From a virus (Duplodnaviria > Heunggongvirae > Uroviricota > Caudoviricetes): 37,388 bases of DNA. The notes under the pieces were generated by a model. That model saw nothing but the letters and a program-made list of their open reading frames with translations, had not been told where the DNA came from and did not search any database. Shown here one piece after another: positions 20,352-35,447 of the stretch. The position numbers and the translations under genes are program-made. The stretch lies in the IMG/VR virus record IMGVR_UViG_2778261448_000003; one strand, written 5' to 3'. Every line of letters starts with the position of its first letter. Positions within the stretch are counted from its first letter, which is position 1.

Positions 20352-20426
<75 letters not shown>

Positions 20427-20429
20427 ATA

Positions 20430-20505
<76 letters not shown>

Positions 20506-20507
20506 AC

Positions 20508-20584
20508 TGGACCGCCACCGAGGACTCGAACCTCGCACACTCAACTTAAAGGGTTAACACTCTTTCTTGGTGAACTGGTGGCGG
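20508..20584 (-). tRNA. Atypical tRNA-like gene X (isotype uncertain; possible UUU anticodon with C33)
   Basis: CCGCCAC...CGAGG-TTCGAGT-CCTCG-GTGGCGG-T-CCA: perfect acceptor and T-arm, but D-loop lacks GG and anticodon loop is CCTTTAA; paralogous to tRNA-like Y. Confidence 0.45.
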
Positions 20585-20585
20585 T

Positions 20586-20661
20586 TGGTGGCCCTTGCTG
20601 GATTCGAACCAGCGACCTGGCGATTATGAGTCGCTCGCTCTCACCACTGAGCTAAAGGGCC
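20586..20661 (-). tRNA. tRNA-Ile2-like (anticodon CAU, ileX/ileZ type)
   Basis: GGCCCTTTAGCTCAGTGGTGAGAGCGAGCGACTCATAATCGCCAGGTCGCTGGTTCGAATCCAGCAAGGGCCACCA; closer to E. coli ileX than to elongator Met. Confidence 0.75.
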
Positions 20662-24363: not shown

Positions 24364-24392
24364 GGAAAAAACAAAACCCGCCGAAGCGGGTT
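24364..24392 (-). terminator. Intrinsic terminator downstream of hok (minus strand)
   Basis: CCCGC-CGAA-GCGGG hairpin followed on the minus strand by TTTTGTTTTTT. Confidence 0.7.
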
Positions 24393-24460
24393 AAGTGCGG
24401 GTGCGTTGAGGATGCCTGACACATCAGAGGTGGCGAGGGATTTCTCCCCCGCCTGGTCTC

Positions 24461-24616
24461 TTACTCCTCAGGTTCGTAAGCTGTGAAGACAGCGACCTCC
24501 GTCTGGCCGGTTCGGATTCGCACCTCGCAGAGGTCTTTCCTCGTTACCAGTGCCGTCACTATGACGGTTAAACAGATGACGATCAGGGCGATTAGCATCG
24601 CCTTTTGCTGCTTCAT
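24461..24616 (-). CDS. hok: Hok/Gef-family type I toxin (51 aa membrane peptide)
   Basis: Own translation: MKQQKAMLIALIVICLTVIVTALVTRKDLCEVRIRTGQTEVAVFTAYEPEE, matching HokD/RelF as recalled; absent from the ORF track because it is under 60 aa. Confidence 0.9.
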   Translation of the reverse strand: MKQQKAMLIALIVICLTVIVTALVTRKDLCEVRIRTGQTEVAVFTAYEPEE

Positions 24617-25249
24617 AGCCTGCTTCTCCTTGACCTTTCGGTCCGTAAGAGGCTAATCTCTATGTGTCGCATAGATATGGCCTCAGATTAATGTTAAGCG
24701 TCTTGCAGGACGCGTAATGTTAACTGGGGCTTTTCTCTATCTGCCGTTGGTGTTCATGCCCGAGGCAGATAGCCTCAAGCACCCACAGCCATTCTACTTA
24801 ACTACCGTTACCTCGCCAACATGAAATCAATCAGAAAGGCGAACCATAAGAACAATAACAACAATTAAATTCATTTTCTCAAATCCTGTTAACGACGCCC
24901 ATCCGACACTAACAACTTTCATTTATTATACTATTTCCCCATCGACGCTCTGCGTTGGCATAACACAAATCTGTCTGTCCGTTTGAGTAAAGAGCGGATA
25001 TCTGCAGTTTCAAAGAAACTGCGCATGCACACGAACTATCAAAGATAGTGATAACTGAGATAAAAACATATGGAAGCCTTCGGCATTTAAAAATAACAGC
25101 AAATCATATAAAAGGAAAGAGATAAGCAACATTTACATAACATGTATCACGATACGCCCCAGTGTTAATAAAAAGACTATCACTTTATTCTTTTATAATG
25201 TTAGTTTGCACTAGCAAGTGCCACTCCGAACAGAAAAAGGATACATGTA

Positions 25250-27061
25250 ATGAAGCTACAGCAATTTAATATTAAAAATTACAAGTCGATAAAAGATGAA
25301 ATAGAAGTATATATCGATGATATAGTTGTGCTAATTGGTCCAAATAACTCTGGAAAGTCAACAATATTAGATGCGTATGAAAAGTTTGCATCTTTAGGAT
25401 CAGCAAAAGGCCTGACTGCTCATGATTTTTATAACTCAGATATATCTATACCAATTGAAATGTGCGGAATTTTCACTGATATCACTGATGATGATATTCG
25501 TACATTAGGGGGAGAGAAATGGTTTTATAAAGATGATGCTCTTGACAGAAGAAATATGGCAAGAAAGTATGGGGGAGATTGGGAGAAAAATAATACACCA
25601 TTGGAAAGCAAACTCTATTATTGTGTTAAATGGGTTTGGTCACATCCAGAAAAAGCAGCCCAAAAACAATCCTATGGCCTTGATGATGCCTCTGGCAAAC
25701 GCATATTTATTGATGGGGGCTCTGGGGGACTTGACACACTACTACAAAGCCGAGTTCCTCAACCAATAAGAATAAGCCCAGATAAATCCATGGATGAAAC
25801 TAAAAAAATTATCATAAGTTTCTTAAAGGAAGATGCAAAAGATGAGTTACTGAAAACAGGGGAAAGTAAAGCTGATATAATACAGAAAATACAAGAGTTG
25901 ACAGACACTCTTATGAAAGATTCCAAATCAAAAATCGATGATCTTCTACAGCAGGTCTCCAAATCATCATCATCTGTTTTTCCTGGGCTAGAACTGGAAT
26001 TAAACATACTTTCCAAGGATCCCGTAGATGCGGATGTTATGGTTTCAGAATCTAACCTTACAGTGAAAATGGATGGGATAAATAGCTCTCTTCTCGAGAA
26101 CCAAGGTCACGGTGTTCGCCGCTCCGTTTTATGGTCTGCTTTGCAAATTTTGACTCACGAATCTCATGCACGAGATAAAATAAAAAAAGCGAAAGGTAAG
26201 CCTATCTCTGTTGAGAAAAAACAATATATTTTATTGATTGATGAGCCTGAATCATTTCTTCACCCTCCTATAATTAGAAGTGCGAGGGACTCGCTTTATG
26301 ATTTTGCAGCAAACAATGATAACTGGCAGGTGATGGCTACAACACACTCCCCTGTATTCATAGACTTATCCAAGAAGCACACGACTATAATTAGGATAGA
26401 AAAAGACAAATCTCTAAATAAAACAATATCTACAGATGAACTATCTTTTTCTGAAGAGGAAAAAGATAATATGAAAATGATAAGATTATGTAACCCAATG
26501 GTTAATGAGTTTTTCTTTTACGACAATATAATATTAGTTGAAGGACCAACTGAAAAAATCGTCATTAACAAAATATGTGATATTGTCGGAGTTGATTATC
26601 ATATCATTGACTGTTTAGGAAAAGGGAATATAAAAACATTTGCTAAAATATTAAATCAATTTAACGTTGAGTATATAGCAGTACATGACTCCGACATTCC
26701 AAAATGCTTAAAGCAAGGAAGCGTTTCAGGTAATGGAGCATGGGGTTCAAATGTATCCATAATGAACGAATGCTCTAAAAGTAAAAAACCAATGGTATTT
26801 ATTCAAATACCTCATTTCGAAGGACTGTTTTTTAAAAATTTCAATCCATCAAACAAAGTTGAAACAGTAACATCAGTTCTATCTAATAATTTAACACCAG
26901 AATACAAAGCAATATTTGATACATATAGCAGAATTTTAAACAAAGATCCTTCTGTTTTTATCAGCTCCAACGAAAAAATGATAGACATGTATCATGCATT
27001 TTATGCCAGTAATAAAAACCAAATTGAGACGCTAAAGAATCCTGAAATCTGGATCCTTTAA
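25250..27061 (+). CDS. OLD-family nuclease: N-terminal ABC-type ATPase fused to C-terminal Toprim domain (class-1, stand-alone)
   Basis: 603 aa; Walker A GPNNSGKST, Walker B/D-loop LLIDEPESFLHP, Toprim motifs LVEGPTE and HDSD; very AT-rich gene unlike the flanking prophage DNA. Confidence 0.8.
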   Translation: MKLQQFNIKNYKSIKDEIEVYIDDIVVLIGPNNSGKSTILDAYEKFASLGSAKGLTAHDFYNSDISIPIEMCGIFTDITDDDIRTLGGEKWFYKDDALDRRNMARKYGGDWEKNNTPLESKLYYCVKWVWSHPEKAAQKQSYGLDDASGKRIFIDGGSGGLDTLLQSRVPQPIRISPDKSMDETKKIIISFLKEDAKDELLKTGESKADIIQKIQELTDTLMKDSKSKIDDLLQQVSKSSSSVFPGLELELNILSKDPVDADVMVSESNLTVKMDGINSSLLENQGHGVRRSVLWSALQILTHESHARDKIKKAKGKPISVEKKQYILLIDEPESFLHPPIIRSARDSLYDFAANNDNWQVMATTHSPVFIDLSKKHTTIIRIEKDKSLNKTISTDELSFSEEEKDNMKMIRLCNPMVNEFFFYDNIILVEGPTEKIVINKICDIVGVDYHIIDCLGKGNIKTFAKILNQFNVEYIAVHDSDIPKCLKQGSVSGNGAWGSNVSIMNECSKSKKPMVFIQIPHFEGLFFKNFNPSNKVETVTSVLSNNLTPEYKAIFDTYSRILNKDPSVFISSNEKMIDMYHAFYASNKNQIETLKNPEIWIL

Positions 27062-27696: not shown

Positions 27697-28773
27697 TTAC
27701 CCCCTGAAGCCCGGTGGAATTTCGGTATCCGGTTCAGAAATATGATTCACACAACGCTGGTTGTTCGTGCCGCTTACCTGGAGCAACCAGGGGTTTTCAA
27801 AATTCCGGTCCGGTCCAAAAAACGTCGTCGCCCGCTGAACAAATTCCGTTCCCGTTTTCCCGGTAACCGCTAGGTATCTTGCGTAACGCCTCACGCCATC
27901 CAGCATTGCCTCTGGTGGCACCCCCTCGCGTAATCTGGCCTTCCAGGCACTGAAAGCGGATTTCTTCGGGTTTGCCCCGGCACGCAACGGGTACTCCCGC
28001 CAGACCTGTTCGAACACATCCGGATAATCCACTCGTCCCACAGACTGCCCGGTGTTTTCCGGGACTACCCGATCGGCTTCCCGCTGAATGGCGGAATCGG
28101 CTTCAGGCTGCTGCAGTTGGTGTGATTGCTCCGGCCTTGCGGTCATCACCTGCTGCACAGCGCCCGAATCGGCTTTCAGCGCATACGCTGAATCGGCTTC
28201 CGGTGTCGTGCCTGCTGGCTGACCAAGATTGACGGTCTGAACATCCCCTGCCTGGTTCGTGGCGTTTTTTACGCCATGGACCATAGTGTTTTGATCTTCT
28301 TGATCTGTATCTTTATCTGTATCTTTATCTGTCGTGACTCGTCGTGACATGTGCGTGACATTTCGTGACGCGCCGTGACAATCGCCATTTTGTTCCCGCT
28401 TTCTTTCCCTCTCTCGCTGCGCCCTCTTGCGCTCTGCAGGAGATTTTGCGGTTTGCGAAATATTGCCGTTGTCCTCTTTAAGCACCTGGCGTTTTTCCCA
28501 TCCAGTGATTAAATCACCATCAAGTACCCGCCCCTGCATCGTCTGCAAAATTGAATCAATTACCTCTTCTGTCACGTCGAGCGCACTTGCCAAATCTTCT
28601 GTCGTGACATCAATGTGACCTCGCGTGACATTTCGTGACGCGCTCACCAGGAGGTGGATATACACTGCCATCACTGTTGCAATTGGCTGCCCTGACACCC
28701 TGGCAATTGTTCGCCACTTAGGGTCATTTGGCATGTCATGCCATAATCTGAGCCAGGCGTTAGCCATACTCAC
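27697..28773 (-). CDS. Replication initiation/replisome organiser protein (lambda O-like role), with internal iterons
   Basis: 358 aa; conserved phage replication-protein C-terminal region (VWREYPLRAG...FSAWKARLREGVPPEAMLDGVRRYARYLAVTGKTGTEFVQRATTFFGP); two iteron clusters inside the ORF. Confidence 0.7.
   Translation of the reverse strand: MSMANAWLRLWHDMPNDPKWRTIARVSGQPIATVMAVYIHLLVSASRNVTRGHIDVTTEDLASALDVTEEVIDSILQTMQGRVLDGDLITGWEKRQVLKEDNGNISQTAKSPAERKRAQRERERKREQNGDCHGASRNVTHMSRRVTTDKDTDKDTDQEDQNTMVHGVKNATNQAGDVQTVNLGQPAGTTPEADSAYALKADSGAVQQVMTARPEQSHQLQQPEADSAIQREADRVVPENTGQSVGRVDYPDVFEQVWREYPLRAGANPKKSAFSAWKARLREGVPPEAMLDGVRRYARYLAVTGKTGTEFVQRATTFFGPDRNFENPWLLQVSGTNNQRCVNHISEPDTEIPPGFRG
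28300..28640. repeat. Putative origin of replication: two clusters of CGTGAC iterons (28331-28380, five copies at ~10-bp spacing; 28600-28640, four copies) plus a tandem TGTATCTTTATC repeat
   Basis: Direct repeats visible in sequence, inside the O-like gene as lambda ori lies inside O. Confidence 0.65.
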
Positions 28774-28838: not shown

Positions 28839-29264
28839 TCAATGTACTGCCACAGCATTTCCTGCCGGGCCACCACGGTTCATCTGATTGAAACCGGCGA
28901 TTGCCACTGCGACAAAATCATCAGCGTCTCTCACCAATCGCTCCCGCGTCTCCACCAGCTCCCGAAAATAAGCTGAACTGTGGCTGCGCATTCTGGCCAC
29001 CAGCAAAGGCGGCATTGCCTTTTCGATCGCTGGTAACAACGCCTGAATTTTTTCAACTGCATCAGGGGTGTCTTTCTCTACCCAGCGGAAAATTTTCTGG
29101 GTATTGCGAGCCAGGGCTTCCGGATGGCTGTCGTCATACAGTTCAGGAAACGTCATACCCAACTCAAAATAAGCCTGGGTTATTCCAGCTGCCGGAACTT
29201 TTTCACCATCCGGATGCGCCCAGGCATTCATCGCCATGCGGATGTGCTCATGTTTGATTTTCAT
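28839..29264 (-). CDS. YdaT-like protein (Rac-type; cII-position gene)
   Basis: 141 aa starting MKIKHEHI, recalled as the Rac YdaT N-terminus; immediately downstream of the Cro-like gene. Confidence 0.55.
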   Translation of the reverse strand: MKIKHEHIRMAMNAWAHPDGEKVPAAGITQAYFELGMTFPELYDDSHPEALARNTQKIFRWVEKDTPDAVEKIQALLPAIEKAMPPLLVARMRSHSSAYFRELVETRERLVRDADDFVAVAIAGFNQMNRGGPAGNAVAVH

Positions 29265-29563
29265 GAATCAACTCCATCAGATAAGCATGCACTACAATCA
29301 CCTTCAGCATGAACTACATGTGTTTGCCCCAAACGAATGCCGCTCGCATACTCAGGCCAAATAAGCTCCCAATCATGGGGTCGTAGCTCCGCCCTACTTA
29401 CTTGGCCTTCCGTCGCAGATTCGATCATAAGGGCACGGGTTGGAGATATAGCTGCTCGTCCAGACGCCATTTGCGATAAGTAAGATGGCGATACACCAAG
29501 TCTGGCCGCGAATTTCTTAGCATCACCAACCCTCAATGATTTAATAAACTCTTTTAATGTCAT
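29261..29563 (-). CDS. Cro/YdaS-like HTH transcriptional regulator
   Basis: 100 aa; HTH segment FAARLGVSPSYLSQMASGR; first gene of the rightward early operon, divergent from the repressor gene. Confidence 0.7.
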   Translation of the reverse strand: MTLKEFIKSLRVGDAKKFAARLGVSPSYLSQMASGRAAISPTRALMIESATEGQVSRAELRPHDWELIWPEYASGIRLGQTHVVHAEGDCSACLSDGVDS

Positions 29564-30640: not shown

Positions 30641-30815
30641 ATACCAACCCACCCCGAGCCACAGAACGCCAGGCAATACTTCGAGTTATCCGGCAGTGGT
30701 CAGGGGATAAGTAGCCAGCCCGAGGCGTAAGAACATGACGGCAGGGTTCAACTTTAATAACTATGCAGCAGGTTTTTGTTCCGCTACCCCAGCGTTAAGG
30801 GGAAATGAGGTCAAC

Positions 30816-30971
30816 ATGGATACTATCGATCTTGGCAACAACGAATCTCTGGTGTGCGGCGTGTTTCCCAACCAGGACGGCACATTCACCGCGATGACGT
30901 ATACCAAAAGCAAAACGTTTAAAACCGAAAATGGTGCCCGTCGCTGGCTGGAAAGAAACTCAGGTGAGTGA
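30816..30971 (+). CDS. Small early-left protein (51 aa, YdaF-like)
   Basis: Start MDTIDLG with AAGGGGA RBS; first gene after the pL-like promoter. Confidence 0.5.
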   Translation: MDTIDLGNNESLVCGVFPNQDGTFTAMTYTKSKTFKTENGARRWLERNSGE

Positions 30972-30972
30972 T

Positions 30973-31101
30973 ATGGATTTCGACACAATCATGAAAAAGG
31001 CTTACGAAGAATACTTCGAAGGCCTTGCCGAAGGCGAAGAAGCTCTCAGCTTCAGTGAGTTTAAACAGGCGCTTTCCAGTTCGGCAAAATCTAACGGCTG
31101 A
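30973..31101 (+). CDS. Small early-left protein (42 aa, YdaG-like; not in ORF track)
   Basis: Own translation MDFDTIMKKAYEEYFEGLAEGEEALSFSEFKQALSSSAKSNG; start 2 nt after the upstream stop. Confidence 0.4.
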   Translation: MDFDTIMKKAYEEYFEGLAEGEEALSFSEFKQALSSSAKSNG

Positions 31102-31130
31102 TAAGCGAAACAGCACCGCGAGGAATCAGT

Positions 31131-31349
31131 ATGCAGAAACGAGAACCCGTCATCATCGCGCCAGACTATACCGATGATGAACTTTATGAGTGGATGCGCC
31201 AGAAAATTAAGGCAGCGCAGGATCTGAAATGGGCCAATGAAGCCAGGGCTAAGCAAGCTGAAAATCTGTCCGCTCTGGAGCAGGATATCACCAATCTGGA
31301 AAAAGCAGCGGCATTGAGCATTGCCAGAATGATTACATACCCGCGTTAA
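31131..31349 (+). CDS. Hypothetical early-left protein (72 aa)
   Basis: ORF in the pL operon; no family recognised. Confidence 0.45.
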   Translation: MQKREPVIIAPDYTDDELYEWMRQKIKAAQDLKWANEARAKQAENLSALEQDITNLEKAAALSIARMITYPR

Positions 31350-31371
31350 TAGCTAACCAACGAGGCTAATA

Positions 31372-31692
31372 ATGGAATTTAAAGATTTACCAATGCAATT
31401 CCAGGAAATGGCAGCGAATATAGTTCGTTCCCAACTGGCGACTCTTGACCTGAGTACCGTAGAAAAAGAAACCATCGATACTATATCCGGTAACGTGCGT
31501 CGTGCCTTTATCGGTCTGTACGAAGAGAAGCAGCTCTCTGATAACCAGGATTTACATGAAAAATACTTCCTGGATCTAATGGACATCATTGATAAGGGGT
31601 TTGGCTTGTTAATGAAAAAGAAAGGGATTCGAATAGACCCCCTTGAAAATTACTTTGCAACAAAAAGCATTAATTCTTTTGATTCAAAATAA
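31372..31692 (+). CDS. Hypothetical early-left protein (106 aa)
   Basis: ORF with AGGCTAATAATG context; no family recognised. Confidence 0.45.
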   Translation: MEFKDLPMQFQEMAANIVRSQLATLDLSTVEKETIDTISGNVRRAFIGLYEEKQLSDNQDLHEKYFLDLMDIIDKGFGLLMKKKGIRIDPLENYFATKSINSFDSK

Positions 31693-31945
31693 GAGAATTA
31701 ATTACAGACTTAACATGCTCTTTCTCATGATTGAAGCTCTCATGATTGAAAGTGCCGGGTTGAAGCGAGTCGATATAATCAACAAGACTCTGTCGTACGA
31801 CTTCATTTTTATCCATAACAGATGCAAGAAATGAAATTGCTAAAAGAGTTATATCACTACGCGCCGCAGCATGCTGCAATGCTTTATCAAAATTATTAAT
31901 CTGGCGTATCAGGGAGTTAATGATTTCATCATTTTCAGTCGACAT
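31670..31945 (-). CDS. Hypothetical AT-rich antisense-oriented small protein (91 aa from MSTENDEII)
   Basis: Start preceded by GGAGGG RBS; AT-rich composition contrasts with neighbours; convergent with the pL operon. Confidence 0.5.
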   Translation of the reverse strand: MSTENDEIINSLIRQINNFDKALQHAAARSDITLLAISFLASVMDKNEVVRQSLVDYIDSLQPGTFNHESFNHEKEHVKSVINSLILNQKN

Positions 31946-32506
31946 TTCACCCTCCTGAGGGTTGGTGATTAAGGAGTTCTCCACGGGTGAGGTGGAGTGC
32001 GTGCGCCGGACACGGGTGAGCATACGGCACTGACAGTTTACTGAAAGGATATTTCCCTGAAAAGTCAGACCATAACGCGAAAGCGCACGGCGAGGTAGCT
32101 GGTTCATAGATAGCCTGTCGTTAAATTTTCGTCGACCGTGCGCTTCCGGTTGTGGCACTCCGCGAAATGGCGCGACGGTAAGTATGGCGGGGTTATTCCT
32201 TCCCCGTTGAGGACACCGGGTTGTCAGGTTGACCATACGCTTAAGTGACAACCCCGCTACAACGCCCTCTGTTATCAATTTTCTGGTGACGTTTGGCGGT
32301 ATCAGTTTTACTCCGTGGCTGCTCTGCCGCCCTTTTTAAAGTGAATTTTGTGATGCGGTGAATGCGGCTAAGCGCACGCGGAACAGTTAAAACCAAAAAC
32401 AGTGTTATGGGTGGATTCTCTGTATCCGACGTTAATTGTTAACTGGTTAACGTCACCTGGAGGCACCAGGCACCGCATCACAAAATTCATTGTTGAGGAC
32501 GCGATA

Positions 32507-32695
32507 ATGGAAACGTTATTACCAAACGTTAATACGTCTGAAGGTTGTTTTGAAATTGGTGTCACTATCAGTAACCCTGTATTTACTGAAGATGCCATTA
32601 ACAAGAGAAAACACGAACGGGAGTTATTAAATAAAATATGCATTCTTTCAATGCTGGCCCGTTTACGTCCGATACAAAAAGGATGCTGGCAATGA
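32507..32695 (+). CDS. Hypothetical small protein (62 aa)
   Basis: Start METLLPNV; stop overlaps the start region of the next small gene. Confidence 0.4.
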   Translation: METLLPNVNTSEGCFEIGVTISNPVFTEDAINKRKHERELLNKICILSMLARLRPIQKGCWQ

Positions 32696-32883
32696 ATACA
32701 GCATTTGCACTTGTTCTGACAGTTTTTCTTGTTTCCGGAGAGCCAGTTGATATTGCAGTCAGTGTTCACAGAACAATGCAGGAATGTATGGCAGCAGCAA
32801 CCGAACAGAAAATTCCCGGTAACTGTTACCCGGTCGATAAAGTTATTCACCAGGATAGTAACGAAATCCCGGCAGGTCTTTAA
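32683..32883 (+). CDS. Small secreted or membrane-anchored protein (66 aa; N-terminal signal peptide, two Cys)
   Basis: MLAMNTAFALVLTVFLVSGEP hydrophobic leader then a hydrophilic domain. Confidence 0.45.
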   Translation: MLAMNTAFALVLTVFLVSGEPVDIAVSVHRTMQECMAAATEQKIPGNCYPVDKVIHQDSNEIPAGL

Positions 32884-32975
32884 AACAGTTCCGTAATAAA
32901 CATCCGATTTCATTCTTATATGCCAGCAATGGCAGGGATTTGTTCACCATTAAATCTGTAATGAGGTAAAACAAA

Positions 32976-35447
32976 ATGAGTAAAGTCTTTATTTGCGCCG
33001 CCATTCCGGACGAACAGGCAATAAAGGAAGAAGGTGCAGTCGCTGTAGCTACTGCCATTGAAGCCGGTGATGAACGTCGCGCCCGCGCAAAATTTCACTG
33101 GCAATTCCTGGAACATTATCCGGCTGCTCAGGACTGCGCTTATAAATTTCTTGTCTGCGAGGATAAACCCGGTATACCCCGCCCTGCCCTCGATTCCTGG
33201 GATGCTGAATATATGCAGGAAAACCGCTGGGATGAGGAGTCTGCTTCCTTTGTCCCGGTTGAGACTGAATCAGATCCGATGAACGTCACTTTTGACAAGC
33301 TGGCCCCTGAAGTACAGAACGCTGTCATGGTTAAGTTCGACACATGTGAAAACATCACTGTTGATATGGTGATTAGCGCACAGGAATTGTTGCAGGAAGA
33401 CATGGCAACATTCGACGGCCATATCGTTGAAGCGTTGATGAAAATGCCAGAAGTAAACGCCATGTATCCGGAGCTTAAGCTGCATGCCATCGGGTGGGTT
33501 AAGCATAAATGTAAGCCTGGTGCCAAATGGCCCGAAATTCAGGCAGAGATGTGCATCTGGAAAAAACGTCGCGAAGGTGAACGCAAGGAAACCGGAAAAT
33601 ACACGTCTGTTGTTGATCTCGCCCGCGCCAGACCCAATCAACAGAACACTGAAAATTCAACAGGAAAAATCAACCCGGTCATTGCTGCCACTCATCGCGA
33701 ATACAAGCAGACATGGAAAACACTGGATGACGAACTGGCCTACGCTCTCTGGCCTGGTGATGTGGATGCCGGAAACATTGACGGCAGCATCCATCGCTGG
33801 GCAAAAAATGAAGTTATCGACAACGACCGCGAAGACTGGAAGCGTATCTCGGCATCAATGCGCAAACAGCCTGATGCCCTTCGCTACGACCGCCAGACTA
33901 TTTTTGGCCTTGTCCGTGAACGTCCGATCGACATTCACAAAGACCCTGTGGCACTGAACAAATACATTACTGAATACCTGACTACAAAGGGCGTGTTTGA
34001 AGATGAAGGAAGAAATCAGAGCGCAACTGATACTCTCTCGTCGCCAGTACCAGAAACTGATGCAGTGGAAACGGCAATTCCGGACAACGAAAAAACCGAA
34101 TGCAAAGTGGAAGTCGAACCATCTGTAGAGCGTGAGGGGCCGTTCTACTTCCTCTTCACCGACAAGAATGGCGAAAAATACGGTCGCGCAAACAAACTTT
34201 CTGGTCTGGATAAGGCGCTGGCTGCCGGGGCTACTGAAATCACGAAAGAAGAATATTTCGCCCGCAAAAACGGTACATACTCAGGTTCACAACAAAATAC
34301 TGGTGCATCTGACACGACCGCACAACCAGAGCCGGTAAAAGTTACCGCTGACGAAGTAAACAAAATTATGCAGGCAGCCAATATCAGCCGGCCTGACGCC
34401 GATGAACTGCTTGCAGTATCACGTGGTGAATTTGTTGCAGGGATTAGCGATCCGAATGATCCGAAATGGGTGAAGGGGATTGAAACCCGCGATTCTGTGA
34501 ACCAGAACCAGCAAGAAACGGAACAGAACGACCAGAAAGCGGAACAAAACAGCCCAAATGCGTTACAAAATGAGCCAGAAACGAAACAATCCGAACCAGT
34601 AGCGCAACAGGAACCGGAAAAAGTCTGCACCGCCTGCGGTCAGAGCGGTGGCGGCAACTGCCCTGATTGTGGCGCGGTGATGGGCGACGCAACATACCAG
34701 GAAACATTCGATGAAGAGAATCAGGTTGAAGTTCAGGAAAATGATCCGGAGGAAATGGAAGGCGCTGAACATCCACACAAGGAGAACCCTGGCGGCAATC
34801 AGCATCACGCCAGCGATAATAAAACTGGCGAGGCGACAGATCCCTTAATTAAGGTGAATGGTCATTATAAGCTCACATCCACCAGCAGAGCGGGGATTCA
34901 TCTGATGATCGACCTTGAAACAATGGGAAAAAATCCCGATGCCCCGATTATCTCAATAGGCGCAATATTTTTCGATCCACAAACCGGAGAGATGGGGCCG
35001 GAATTTAGCAAGACCATCGATCTGGATACGGCTGGCGGAGTCATTGATCGTGACGTCATTAAATGGTGGCTGAAGCAATCACGTGAAGCGCAGTCTGCCA
35101 TTATGACCGATGAAATCCCGTTAGATGATGCACTACTGCAATTGCGGGAATTTATCGACGAAAACTCCGGTGAATTTTTTGTTCAGGTCTGGGGTAATGG
35201 GGCCAACTTCGACAACGTGATTTTACGCCGTTCATACGAACGACAGGGTATCCCCTGCCCGTGGCGCTACTGCAACGATCGCGATGTACGCACAATCGTT
35301 GAGCTGGGGAAAGCCATAGACTTCGATGCCAGAACTGCTATCCCATTCGAAGGTGAGCGCCATAATGCACTTGATGACGCTCGTTACCAGGCAAAATACG
35401 TTTCAGCTATCTGGCAAAAACTGATCCCGAGTCAGGCTGATTTTTAA
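32976..35447 (+). CDS. RecE (exodeoxyribonuclease VIII)-like early protein with C-terminal DEDD-type 3'-5' exonuclease domain
   Basis: 823 aa; central LLAVSRGEFVAGISDPNDPKWVKGIETRD segment recalled from Rac RecE; C-terminal DLETMG...NGANFD...HNALDDARY is a DnaQ-like DEDDh signature; Cys4 motif CTACG...CPDCG. Confidence 0.6.
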   Translation: MSKVFICAAIPDEQAIKEEGAVAVATAIEAGDERRARAKFHWQFLEHYPAAQDCAYKFLVCEDKPGIPRPALDSWDAEYMQENRWDEESASFVPVETESDPMNVTFDKLAPEVQNAVMVKFDTCENITVDMVISAQELLQEDMATFDGHIVEALMKMPEVNAMYPELKLHAIGWVKHKCKPGAKWPEIQAEMCIWKKRREGERKETGKYTSVVDLARARPNQQNTENSTGKINPVIAATHREYKQTWKTLDDELAYALWPGDVDAGNIDGSIHRWAKNEVIDNDREDWKRISASMRKQPDALRYDRQTIFGLVRERPIDIHKDPVALNKYITEYLTTKGVFEDEGRNQSATDTLSSPVPETDAVETAIPDNEKTECKVEVEPSVEREGPFYFLFTDKNGEKYGRANKLSGLDKALAAGATEITKEEYFARKNGTYSGSQQNTGASDTTAQPEPVKVTADEVNKIMQAANISRPDADELLAVSRGEFVAGISDPNDPKWVKGIETRDSVNQNQQETEQNDQKAEQNSPNALQNEPETKQSEPVAQQEPEKVCTACGQSGGGNCPDCGAVMGDATYQETFDEENQVEVQENDPEEMEGAEHPHKENPGGNQHHASDNKTGEATDPLIKVNGHYKLTSTSRAGIHLMIDLETMGKNPDAPIISIGAIFFDPQTGEMGPEFSKTIDLDTAGGVIDRDVIKWWLKQSREAQSAIMTDEIPLDDALLQLREFIDENSGEFFVQVWGNGANFDNVILRRSYERQGIPCPWRYCNDRDVRTIVELGKAIDFDARTAIPFEGERHNALDDARYQAKYVSAIWQKLIPSQADF

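Follow-up and report, generated by a model that had tools for sequence, protein, structure and literature searches.

A complete hok/sok toxin-antisense RNA locus of the hokD type, with a 19-codon mok leader frame, in a lambda-like prophage

We confirmed that a 51-codon frame on the minus strand of a 37,388-nucleotide stretch of viral DNA (IMG/VR record IMGVR_UViG_2778261448_000003; here, the window) is a real gene and that it belongs to a complete hok/sok toxin-antisense RNA module. The full module extends from about 24819 to 24366, wider than the interval 24461 to 24800 assigned to it in a preliminary description made from the sequence letters, and its conserved, covarying anatomy makes it very probable that the locus is regulated in the manner of plasmid R1. 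The window element is a lambda-like prophage, and the locus is already known and ordinary, because most Escherichia coli strains carry such a module in lambda-like prophages: 4740 of 5426 complete E. coli genomes contain similar DNA, in which PGAP names the gene hokD, and 102 phage records have it under the names MokW, hok, gef, or host killer. As a discovery it carries little weight, since the peptide is identical to HokD and annotated in RefSeq, the hokW-sokW relative has been studied experimentally, and the hok/sok family is among the longest-studied antisense-RNA systems. Its value lies in useful corrections (a complete hokD-type locus where K-12 retains a stump, a short mok leader, and an Rfam "sok" model that describes the hok-strand leader) and in one mildly new angle, namely that the mok frame varies freely and that one of its alleles, the one in the window, has the mok stop and hok start overlapping as AUGA.

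Direct translation of positions 24461 to 24616 (minus strand) gives an ATG-to-TAA frame of 51 codons, the hok toxin gene, whose product is MKQQKAMLIALIVICLTVIVTALVTRKDLCEVRIRTGQTEVAVFTAYEPEE. The Pfam family HOK_GEF (PF01848) aligns with this peptide from profile position 1 to 42 of 42, with 82.9 bits (cutoff, 22) and an E value of 1.2e-23, in agreement with the full-length family match proposed earlier for a 51-amino-acid (aa) peptide; the N-terminal membrane helix, the conserved C-terminal Hok/Gef core, and the length of about 50 aa that define the family are all present. Alignment to hok family members, a check that the preliminary description had suggested, gives 100% identity to HokD/RelF of E. 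coli K-12 and 47 of 51 identical residues with HokW. The same description had called the gene unannotated, which is true of the list of open reading frames it worked from (cutoff, 60 aa) but not of RefSeq, where the identical protein WP_000813254.1 is named hokD in genomes with the gene order of the window. NCBIfam Hok models score the peptide under their curated cutoffs (PRK09738, 48.5 versus 73; HokA, 40.2 versus 89), and these subthreshold matches were left out of its naming; PADLOC has no Hok model, so the missing Hok match there is uninformative. RelF/HokD was reportedly found to be toxic by Gerdes et al. in 1986, and by homology the window Hok is expected to be toxic as well.

The hok mRNA promoter was placed by a consensus scan at 24791 to 24819 (minus strand), with a −35 hexamer TTGGCG (24819 to 24814), a 17-nt spacer, and a −10 hexamer TAGAAT (24796 to 24791) that lies 7 nt upstream of the conserved 5′ GGGUGCUUGAGG; related loci carry −10-like hexamers (TATAAT, TAGAAT, TATATT) in the same alignment columns. 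By homology to R1-type and hokW leaders, the mRNA probably begins at about 24784, where position 1 of the Rfam model RF01794 aligns; the R1-type locus (L005) and the hokW locus (L004) show the same model start, which in the R1-type leader coincides with the first base. The full-length hok mRNA would thus span 24369 to 24784 (minus strand, about 416 nt). It ends at an intrinsic terminator (24366 to 24392, minus strand) made of a hairpin from 24392 to 24375 followed by UUGUUUUUU, so that a terminator does follow hok as previously noted, with its hairpin and T-run outside the interval then assigned to the module. Between these ends lie, all on the minus strand, the translational activator element tac (GGGUGCUUGAGG, 24773 to 24784) and the fold-back inhibitory element fbi (CCUCAACGCACCC, 24399 to 24411), both recognized by their mutual pairing in the minimum free energy (MFE) fold; the mok anti-Shine-Dalgarno box ucb (AGCCCC region, 24726 to 24732), whose partner in the fold is the mok Shine-Dalgarno region; a dcb-like box GCCUC (24649 to 24653) that sits within the invariant AGCCUCUUAC and is conserved between the window and the R1-type locus; and the hok Shine-Dalgarno sequence AAGGAG (24626 to 24631), found by sequence inspection and motif search inside the mok frame.

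Rfam, to which the preliminary description had also pointed, matches the whole of RF01794 (model positions 1 to 157) to 24614 to 24784 (minus strand) with 101.3 bits against a gathering score of 59. The strand matched by this "sok antitoxin" model is the hok-coding one, over the stretch between the mRNA 5′ end and the hok AUG, both in the window and in the R1-type locus (L005, 332 to 503) and the hokW locus (L004, 2520 to 2694). The match therefore marks the hok leader or locus, not the antisense transcript or its strand.

The 416-nt transcript has a predicted MFE of −175.5 kcal/mol, with its 5′ and 3′ ends paired. In this fold tac and fbi form 12 bp with one bulged C (duplex, −21.5 kcal/mol), the segment containing fbi begins 52 nt into the tail counted from the stop codon, as it does in relatives, and ucb (24732 to 24726) pairs with the region of the mok ribosome site. 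When the RNA was ended at 24412 or at 24420, the MFE structure was the 5′ metastable hairpin, a known feature of hok mRNAs, and the stem between tac and ucb was absent. When it was ended at 24430, a tac/ucb stem was predicted together with a stem between GAGGC (24684 to 24680) and GCCUC (24653 to 24649). The open form of R1 hok mRNA has tac/ucb and mok-Shine-Dalgarno/dcb stems (PMC9841398). Since the R1-like open form appeared only with the 24430 end, the refolding step is only partly reproduced.

We fetched 53 related loci from species-representative genomes and aligned 41 distinct hok mRNAs from Escherichia, Kluyvera, Photorhabdus, Pantoea, phages, and an R1-type plasmid. A per-sequence duplex search found the tac/fbi duplex in all but two of the 41 loci, both of them damaged copies, and at the same position throughout except in the R1-type plasmid copy, where the duplex spans a long internal loop. 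The pairing is GGGUGC/GCACCC in Escherichia and Kluyvera, GGGCGC/GCGCCC in Photorhabdus and Pantoea, and GGCGC/GCGCC in R1. Compensatory changes are found within it: alignment columns 58 and 476 hold U-A in 26 sequences versus C-G in 12, a second pair is G-C in 23 sequences versus A-U in 5, and GAGGC/CCUC is exchanged in matched fashion for GAGAC/UCUC. The fbi and tac elements that had been proposed as a check on the locus are thus present as a 12-bp pairing with compensatory changes across the 41 loci. The column-based count of this duplex is too low for Photorhabdus and Pantoea (scored as "other" cells in helix 1), whereas the per-sequence search shows perfect pairing in them; MAFFT shifted their register because their fbi is without the bulged C. 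Mapped on the alignment, the window fold has 85.9% of cells paired versus 39 to 44% with slid partners, a percentage somewhat inflated by the derivation of the fold from one of the aligned sequences, and 50 pairs changed on both sides versus 25 to 34, counts that are less affected by it. The observed covariation score was reached by 0 of 500 shuffles. Pairing in helix 4, where ucb meets the mok Shine-Dalgarno region, is 88%, and both sides have changed in 6 of its pairs. Three of the related loci look decayed: one in E. coli ECMA0423 (L009) has a diverged 5′ end and has lost the fbi pairing, one in Photorhabdus khanii (L049) is missing its leader, and one in Shigella flexneri (L051) has a scrambled Hok membrane segment.

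The mok leader frame is short in the window. Its Shine-Dalgarno sequence GAGG (24681 to 24684, minus strand), read from the sequence, lies 8 nt upstream of the mok AUG and is also GAGG in R1 (PMC9841398). From the AUG at 24672 the frame runs for 19 codons (MRHIEISLLRTERSRRSRL) plus a UGA (24613 to 24672, minus strand), and this stop overlaps the hok start (cuAUGAag). Alignment to phage Rac (MN652886), E. coli VG48B2, and phage Evi shows a gap of 2 nt in the window directly behind its mok ATG, and this gap accounts for the 19-codon length. The preliminary description had expected a mok frame and a Sok promoter upstream of hok; a mok-type start and a predicted Sok promoter are there, but mok is a 19-codon leader and not a long overlap. 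The same short frame is shared by two hokC-type loci (L018 and L020), its −56 register being that of the hokC-type loci of E. ruysiae and E. whittamii. The 81-nt leader is identical in L006, and strain SK1144 carries this leader; 712 E. coli records contain the 81-nt piece at 99% identity or more, which argues that the short mok is a widespread allele and not the product of damage.

Among relatives the upstream ATG occurs in any of three registers, −56, −57, or −58 relative to the hok AUG. The −57 register, in frame with hok, is found in most loci, among them the R1-type plasmid copy and those of the hokC type, and gives extended products of 68 to 71 aa; the −58 register, of the phage Rac type, gives a 68-aa overlapping frame that is annotated as mok. 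The textbook account of mok as an out-of-frame overlap of hok was considered for this group and rejected, because the upstream ATG of most relatives is in frame with hok. A saturation mutagenesis study of R1 hok/sok concluded that translation of mok has to reach the hok ribosome site but need not go past the hok start (PMC9841398); the 19-codon frame of the window extends as far as the hok start. The three registers among close relatives suggest that what is conserved is only that mok is translated, and not the peptide it encodes. That the short mok is a distinct regulatory variant, in which Hok would be made by termination and reinitiation at AUGA instead of by ribosomes unfolding its site, seems improbable to us. 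Taken with the three registers, such a variant would mean that the leader frame evolves freely and may tune Hok output, and the in-frame versions of mok might also yield N-terminally extended Hok.

The putative Sok promoter lies opposite the end of the leader, at 24630 to 24659 (plus strand), with a −35 hexamer TTGACC (24630 to 24635), an 18-nt spacer, and a −10 hexamer TAATCT (24654 to 24659). At the same position the R1-type locus has TTGCGC, 17 nt, and TATCCT, and the hokW locus has TTGCCT, 17 nt, and TAACCT; the −10 positions of sokW and of the window coincide, whereas the −35 hexamers and spacers differ. Takada et al. abolished antitoxin activity by mutating the sokW −10 TAACCT, using primers YO-421/422 that change TAGGTTAG to CCGGCTCG on the hok strand (PMC8621323). 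The consensus promoter scan that called the hok promoter did not call the Sok promoter, because its −10 matches the consensus at only 3 of 6 positions, and we used homology with R1 and with the mutated −10 of sokW to place it. The predicted Sok RNA (24665 to 24738, plus strand; about 70 to 75 nt, with its start set by the −10 position) begins with a short unpaired 5′ tail that is complementary to the mok AUG, continues in a long hairpin (24679 to 24731) over the mok Shine-Dalgarno sequence, and has a U-rich 3′ end. Its predicted fold of −31.7 kcal/mol has a z score of −5.2, and 0 of 200 shuffles fold as well. Prediction and homology together point to a cis-antisense Sok with its own promoter and terminator hairpin.

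The regulatory steps are established for plasmid R1 and in part for hokW, and for the window we extend them from its anatomy. A constitutive promoter would give a stable hok mRNA of about 416 nt in which tac pairs with fbi and ucb covers the mok ribosome site, so that the full-length message would be neither translated nor bound by Sok. Slow trimming from the 3′ end would remove fbi, after which tac would pair with ucb and expose the mok ribosome site. Ribosomes on the 19-codon mok would pass over the hok ribosome site and terminate at the hok AUG, which would allow hok to be translated. The unstable Sok RNA of about 70 nt would cover the mok ribosome site and AUG, blocking mok and marking the duplex for degradation, such that Hok would be made only once Sok transcription stops. 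Hok itself would act as a 51-aa inner-membrane peptide that depolarizes and kills the cell.

The closest experimentally studied relative of the window locus is hokW-sokW, which is the locus of Sakai prophage 5 (an Stx2 phage) in E. coli O157:H7 (Takada et al. 2021, PMC8621323). Both are lambda-like prophage elements with the same architecture from leader to terminator; their DNA is about 93% identical over the hok mRNA, their peptides are identical at 47 of 51 positions, with all four differing residues within the last seven, and the hokW primer YO-349 matches the tac region of the window exactly. We equate the Hok of Stx2 phage I (L004) with HokW because it ends in VDYESEK, as primer YO-369 dictates. 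The two loci differ in the leader, where hokW has an upstream ATG at −57, in frame and giving a 70-aa extended product, and the window has an ATG at −56 and a 19-codon frame. They differ at many positions in the single-stranded 5′ tail of Sok and its target, which makes cross-neutralization between the window locus and sokW uncertain. HokW is toxic and is neutralized by Sok, its production depends on RecA, and phage release is twofold that of a deletion mutant (PMC8621323). Stx2 converting phage I also carries, about 2.4 kb upstream of hokW (L004, 80 to 168, plus strand), an Rfam match to sRNA-Xcc1 (RF02221, 69 bits) that is absent from the window.

The K-12 gene hokD (relF), in the Qin cryptic prophage, stands in a different relation to the window. 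Its DNA is 98% identical from 24630, which is 14 nt upstream of the hok AUG, through fbi to the terminator, and Qin and the window belong to the same prophage family, with DicF and ydfA-type genes in both. K-12 hokD, however, has no tac, ucb, mok, or sok, and relE/relB abut the gene, whereas the leader of the window is complete; an RF01794 search of the K-12 hokD locus found no match. As homology ends at 24630, K-12 hokD has lost its leader and kept the reading frame, fbi, and terminator (L060, 2025 to 2289).

More distant relatives share the same plan. Plasmid R1 hok/sok (parB) has tac, fbi, ucb, dcb, the GAGG mok Shine-Dalgarno sequence, and the terminal hairpin in common with the window, and both have a mok start 56 to 57 nt upstream of hok, a Sok promoter over the mok-hok junction, and a match to RF01794. 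The mRNAs are only about 49% identical, and one locus is on a plasmid while the other is in a prophage; the R1-type copy has an upstream ATG in frame with hok and a 71-aa product in place of the 19-codon leader, and the window leader has an extra 18-nt extension of the Sok hairpin. HokW is 44% identical to R1 Hok (PMC8621323). The hokC (gef)/mokC/sokC loci are of the same family and have the same leader architecture, and two of them (L018 and L020) have the 19-codon short-mok arrangement; their peptide is about 80% identical to that of the window, their Sok hairpin is shorter, and they lie in the chromosome backbone and not in a prophage.

Two readings would deny the locus a working role. That the frame is a chance short open reading frame without function could appeal to nothing other than its length, and we reject it, given a Pfam match across the whole domain (E = 1.2e-23), an identical annotated protein, and a conserved, covarying RNA structure around it. 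Decay deserves more attention, as several chromosomal hok copies in K-12 are inert remnants and the circuit in the window could likewise have been disabled by its short mok or a weak Sok promoter. The wholly lost leader of K-12 hokD (homology ending at 24630) and the visible damage in the ECMA0423, S. flexneri, and P. khanii copies illustrate how such loci come apart, and the 19 codons of the window mok contrast with about 70 elsewhere. Yet every regulatory element is present in the window with its expected pairing, the hok frame is intact and identical to HokD, and the short-mok allele, shared by 712 records at 99% identity or more, turns up again in E. ruysiae and E. whittamii, so that we regard an inert remnant as very unlikely and a complete, R1-type hok/sok locus as much the better account.

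A different question is whether hok/sok forms a unit with the gene beside it, an OLD-family nuclease of 603 aa encoded as a single gene at 25250 to 27061 (plus strand), outside the hok/sok locus. The preliminary description had called this neighbor OLD-like, and its domains (AAA_15 at residues 1 to 371, E = 8.5e-30; OLD-like_TOPRIM at 422 to 482, E = 2.3e-14) and the PADLOC Old model (245 bits, E = 3.4e-73) uphold that identity. It went on to describe a compact addiction/defense cluster, which would make hok/sok and OLD one coselected unit, for instance one in which Hok kills and OLD provides the sensing or the nuclease function. The two genes are indeed adjacent and divergent, about 465 bp apart, the neighbor is a genuine OLD-family protein by both Pfam and PADLOC, and R1 hok/sok is reported to lower T4 plating, according to work cited in PMC8621323. 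The distribution of the two genes is hard to reconcile with coselection: of 5426 complete E. coli genomes, 4 have the OLD gene, each at 99% identity or more, against 4740 with the hok module, which makes the OLD gene rare prophage cargo. In SK1144 the same hok allele occupies the same slot between DUF977 and DUF968 beside unrelated small genes, and in phage Evi an acetyltransferase has the position of the OLD gene beside hok. The genes lie on opposite strands, each with its own promoter, and the OLD gene runs against early phage transcription. Among 44248 Hok homologues, location in prophages is enriched (23% versus 5% expected) but proximity to defense systems is not (12% versus 9.4% expected; bioRxiv 10.1101/2025.08.07.668861). 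The proposed cluster therefore does not hold as a conserved unit, and we give coselection hardly any credence; hok/sok and the OLD nuclease are separate cargo in a variable slot, adjacent by chance, and the pair should not be counted as a defense island or as a new composite system.

What the locus does for its prophage can be approached through hokW-sokW. Induction of the prophage may remove Sok, with Hok then aiding lysis and phage release as in hokW-sokW, a reading that we take as the likeliest of three but hold tentatively, and that extrapolates from a single hokW study. Because hok lies on the early rightward strand with sok opposed to it, read-through upon induction could silence sok by transcriptional interference. 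Two further roles do not exclude this one or each other: retention of the prophage, which we consider possible but rather doubtful, and abortive infection against other phages, which appears unlikely.

The gene order around the locus is that of E. coli VG48B2, which runs Cro-like, YdaT, hypothetical protein, DUF977, an opposite-strand ATP-dependent nuclease, and hokD, followed by a hypothetical protein, DUF968, RusA, and Q, and Pfam assignments of the window open reading frames agree with it. With the replication genes on one side and the nin/Q region on the other, hok has the place that the preliminary description had given it, and it is encoded on the strand that early rightward transcription reads. 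The early-right operon is headed by a pair of YdaS-like (helix-turn-helix, Cro/CI-type) and YdaT-like genes (28839 to 29563, minus strand), followed in the position of a replication gene by a 358-aa open reading frame (27697 to 28773) for which a Pfam search gave no match. Just downstream of Q, ARAGORN identified three tRNA genes (20352 to 20661, minus strand), Gly-tcc, Thr-tgt, and Met-cat; at the equivalent place SK1144 has tRNAs annotated as Ile, Arg, and Arg. The window also encodes the DicF small RNA at 32281 to 32332 (plus strand; Rfam RF00039, 75 bits, full length), within a block (30778 to 33742) that is 95 to 98% identical to the dicF/dicB region of K-12 Qin.
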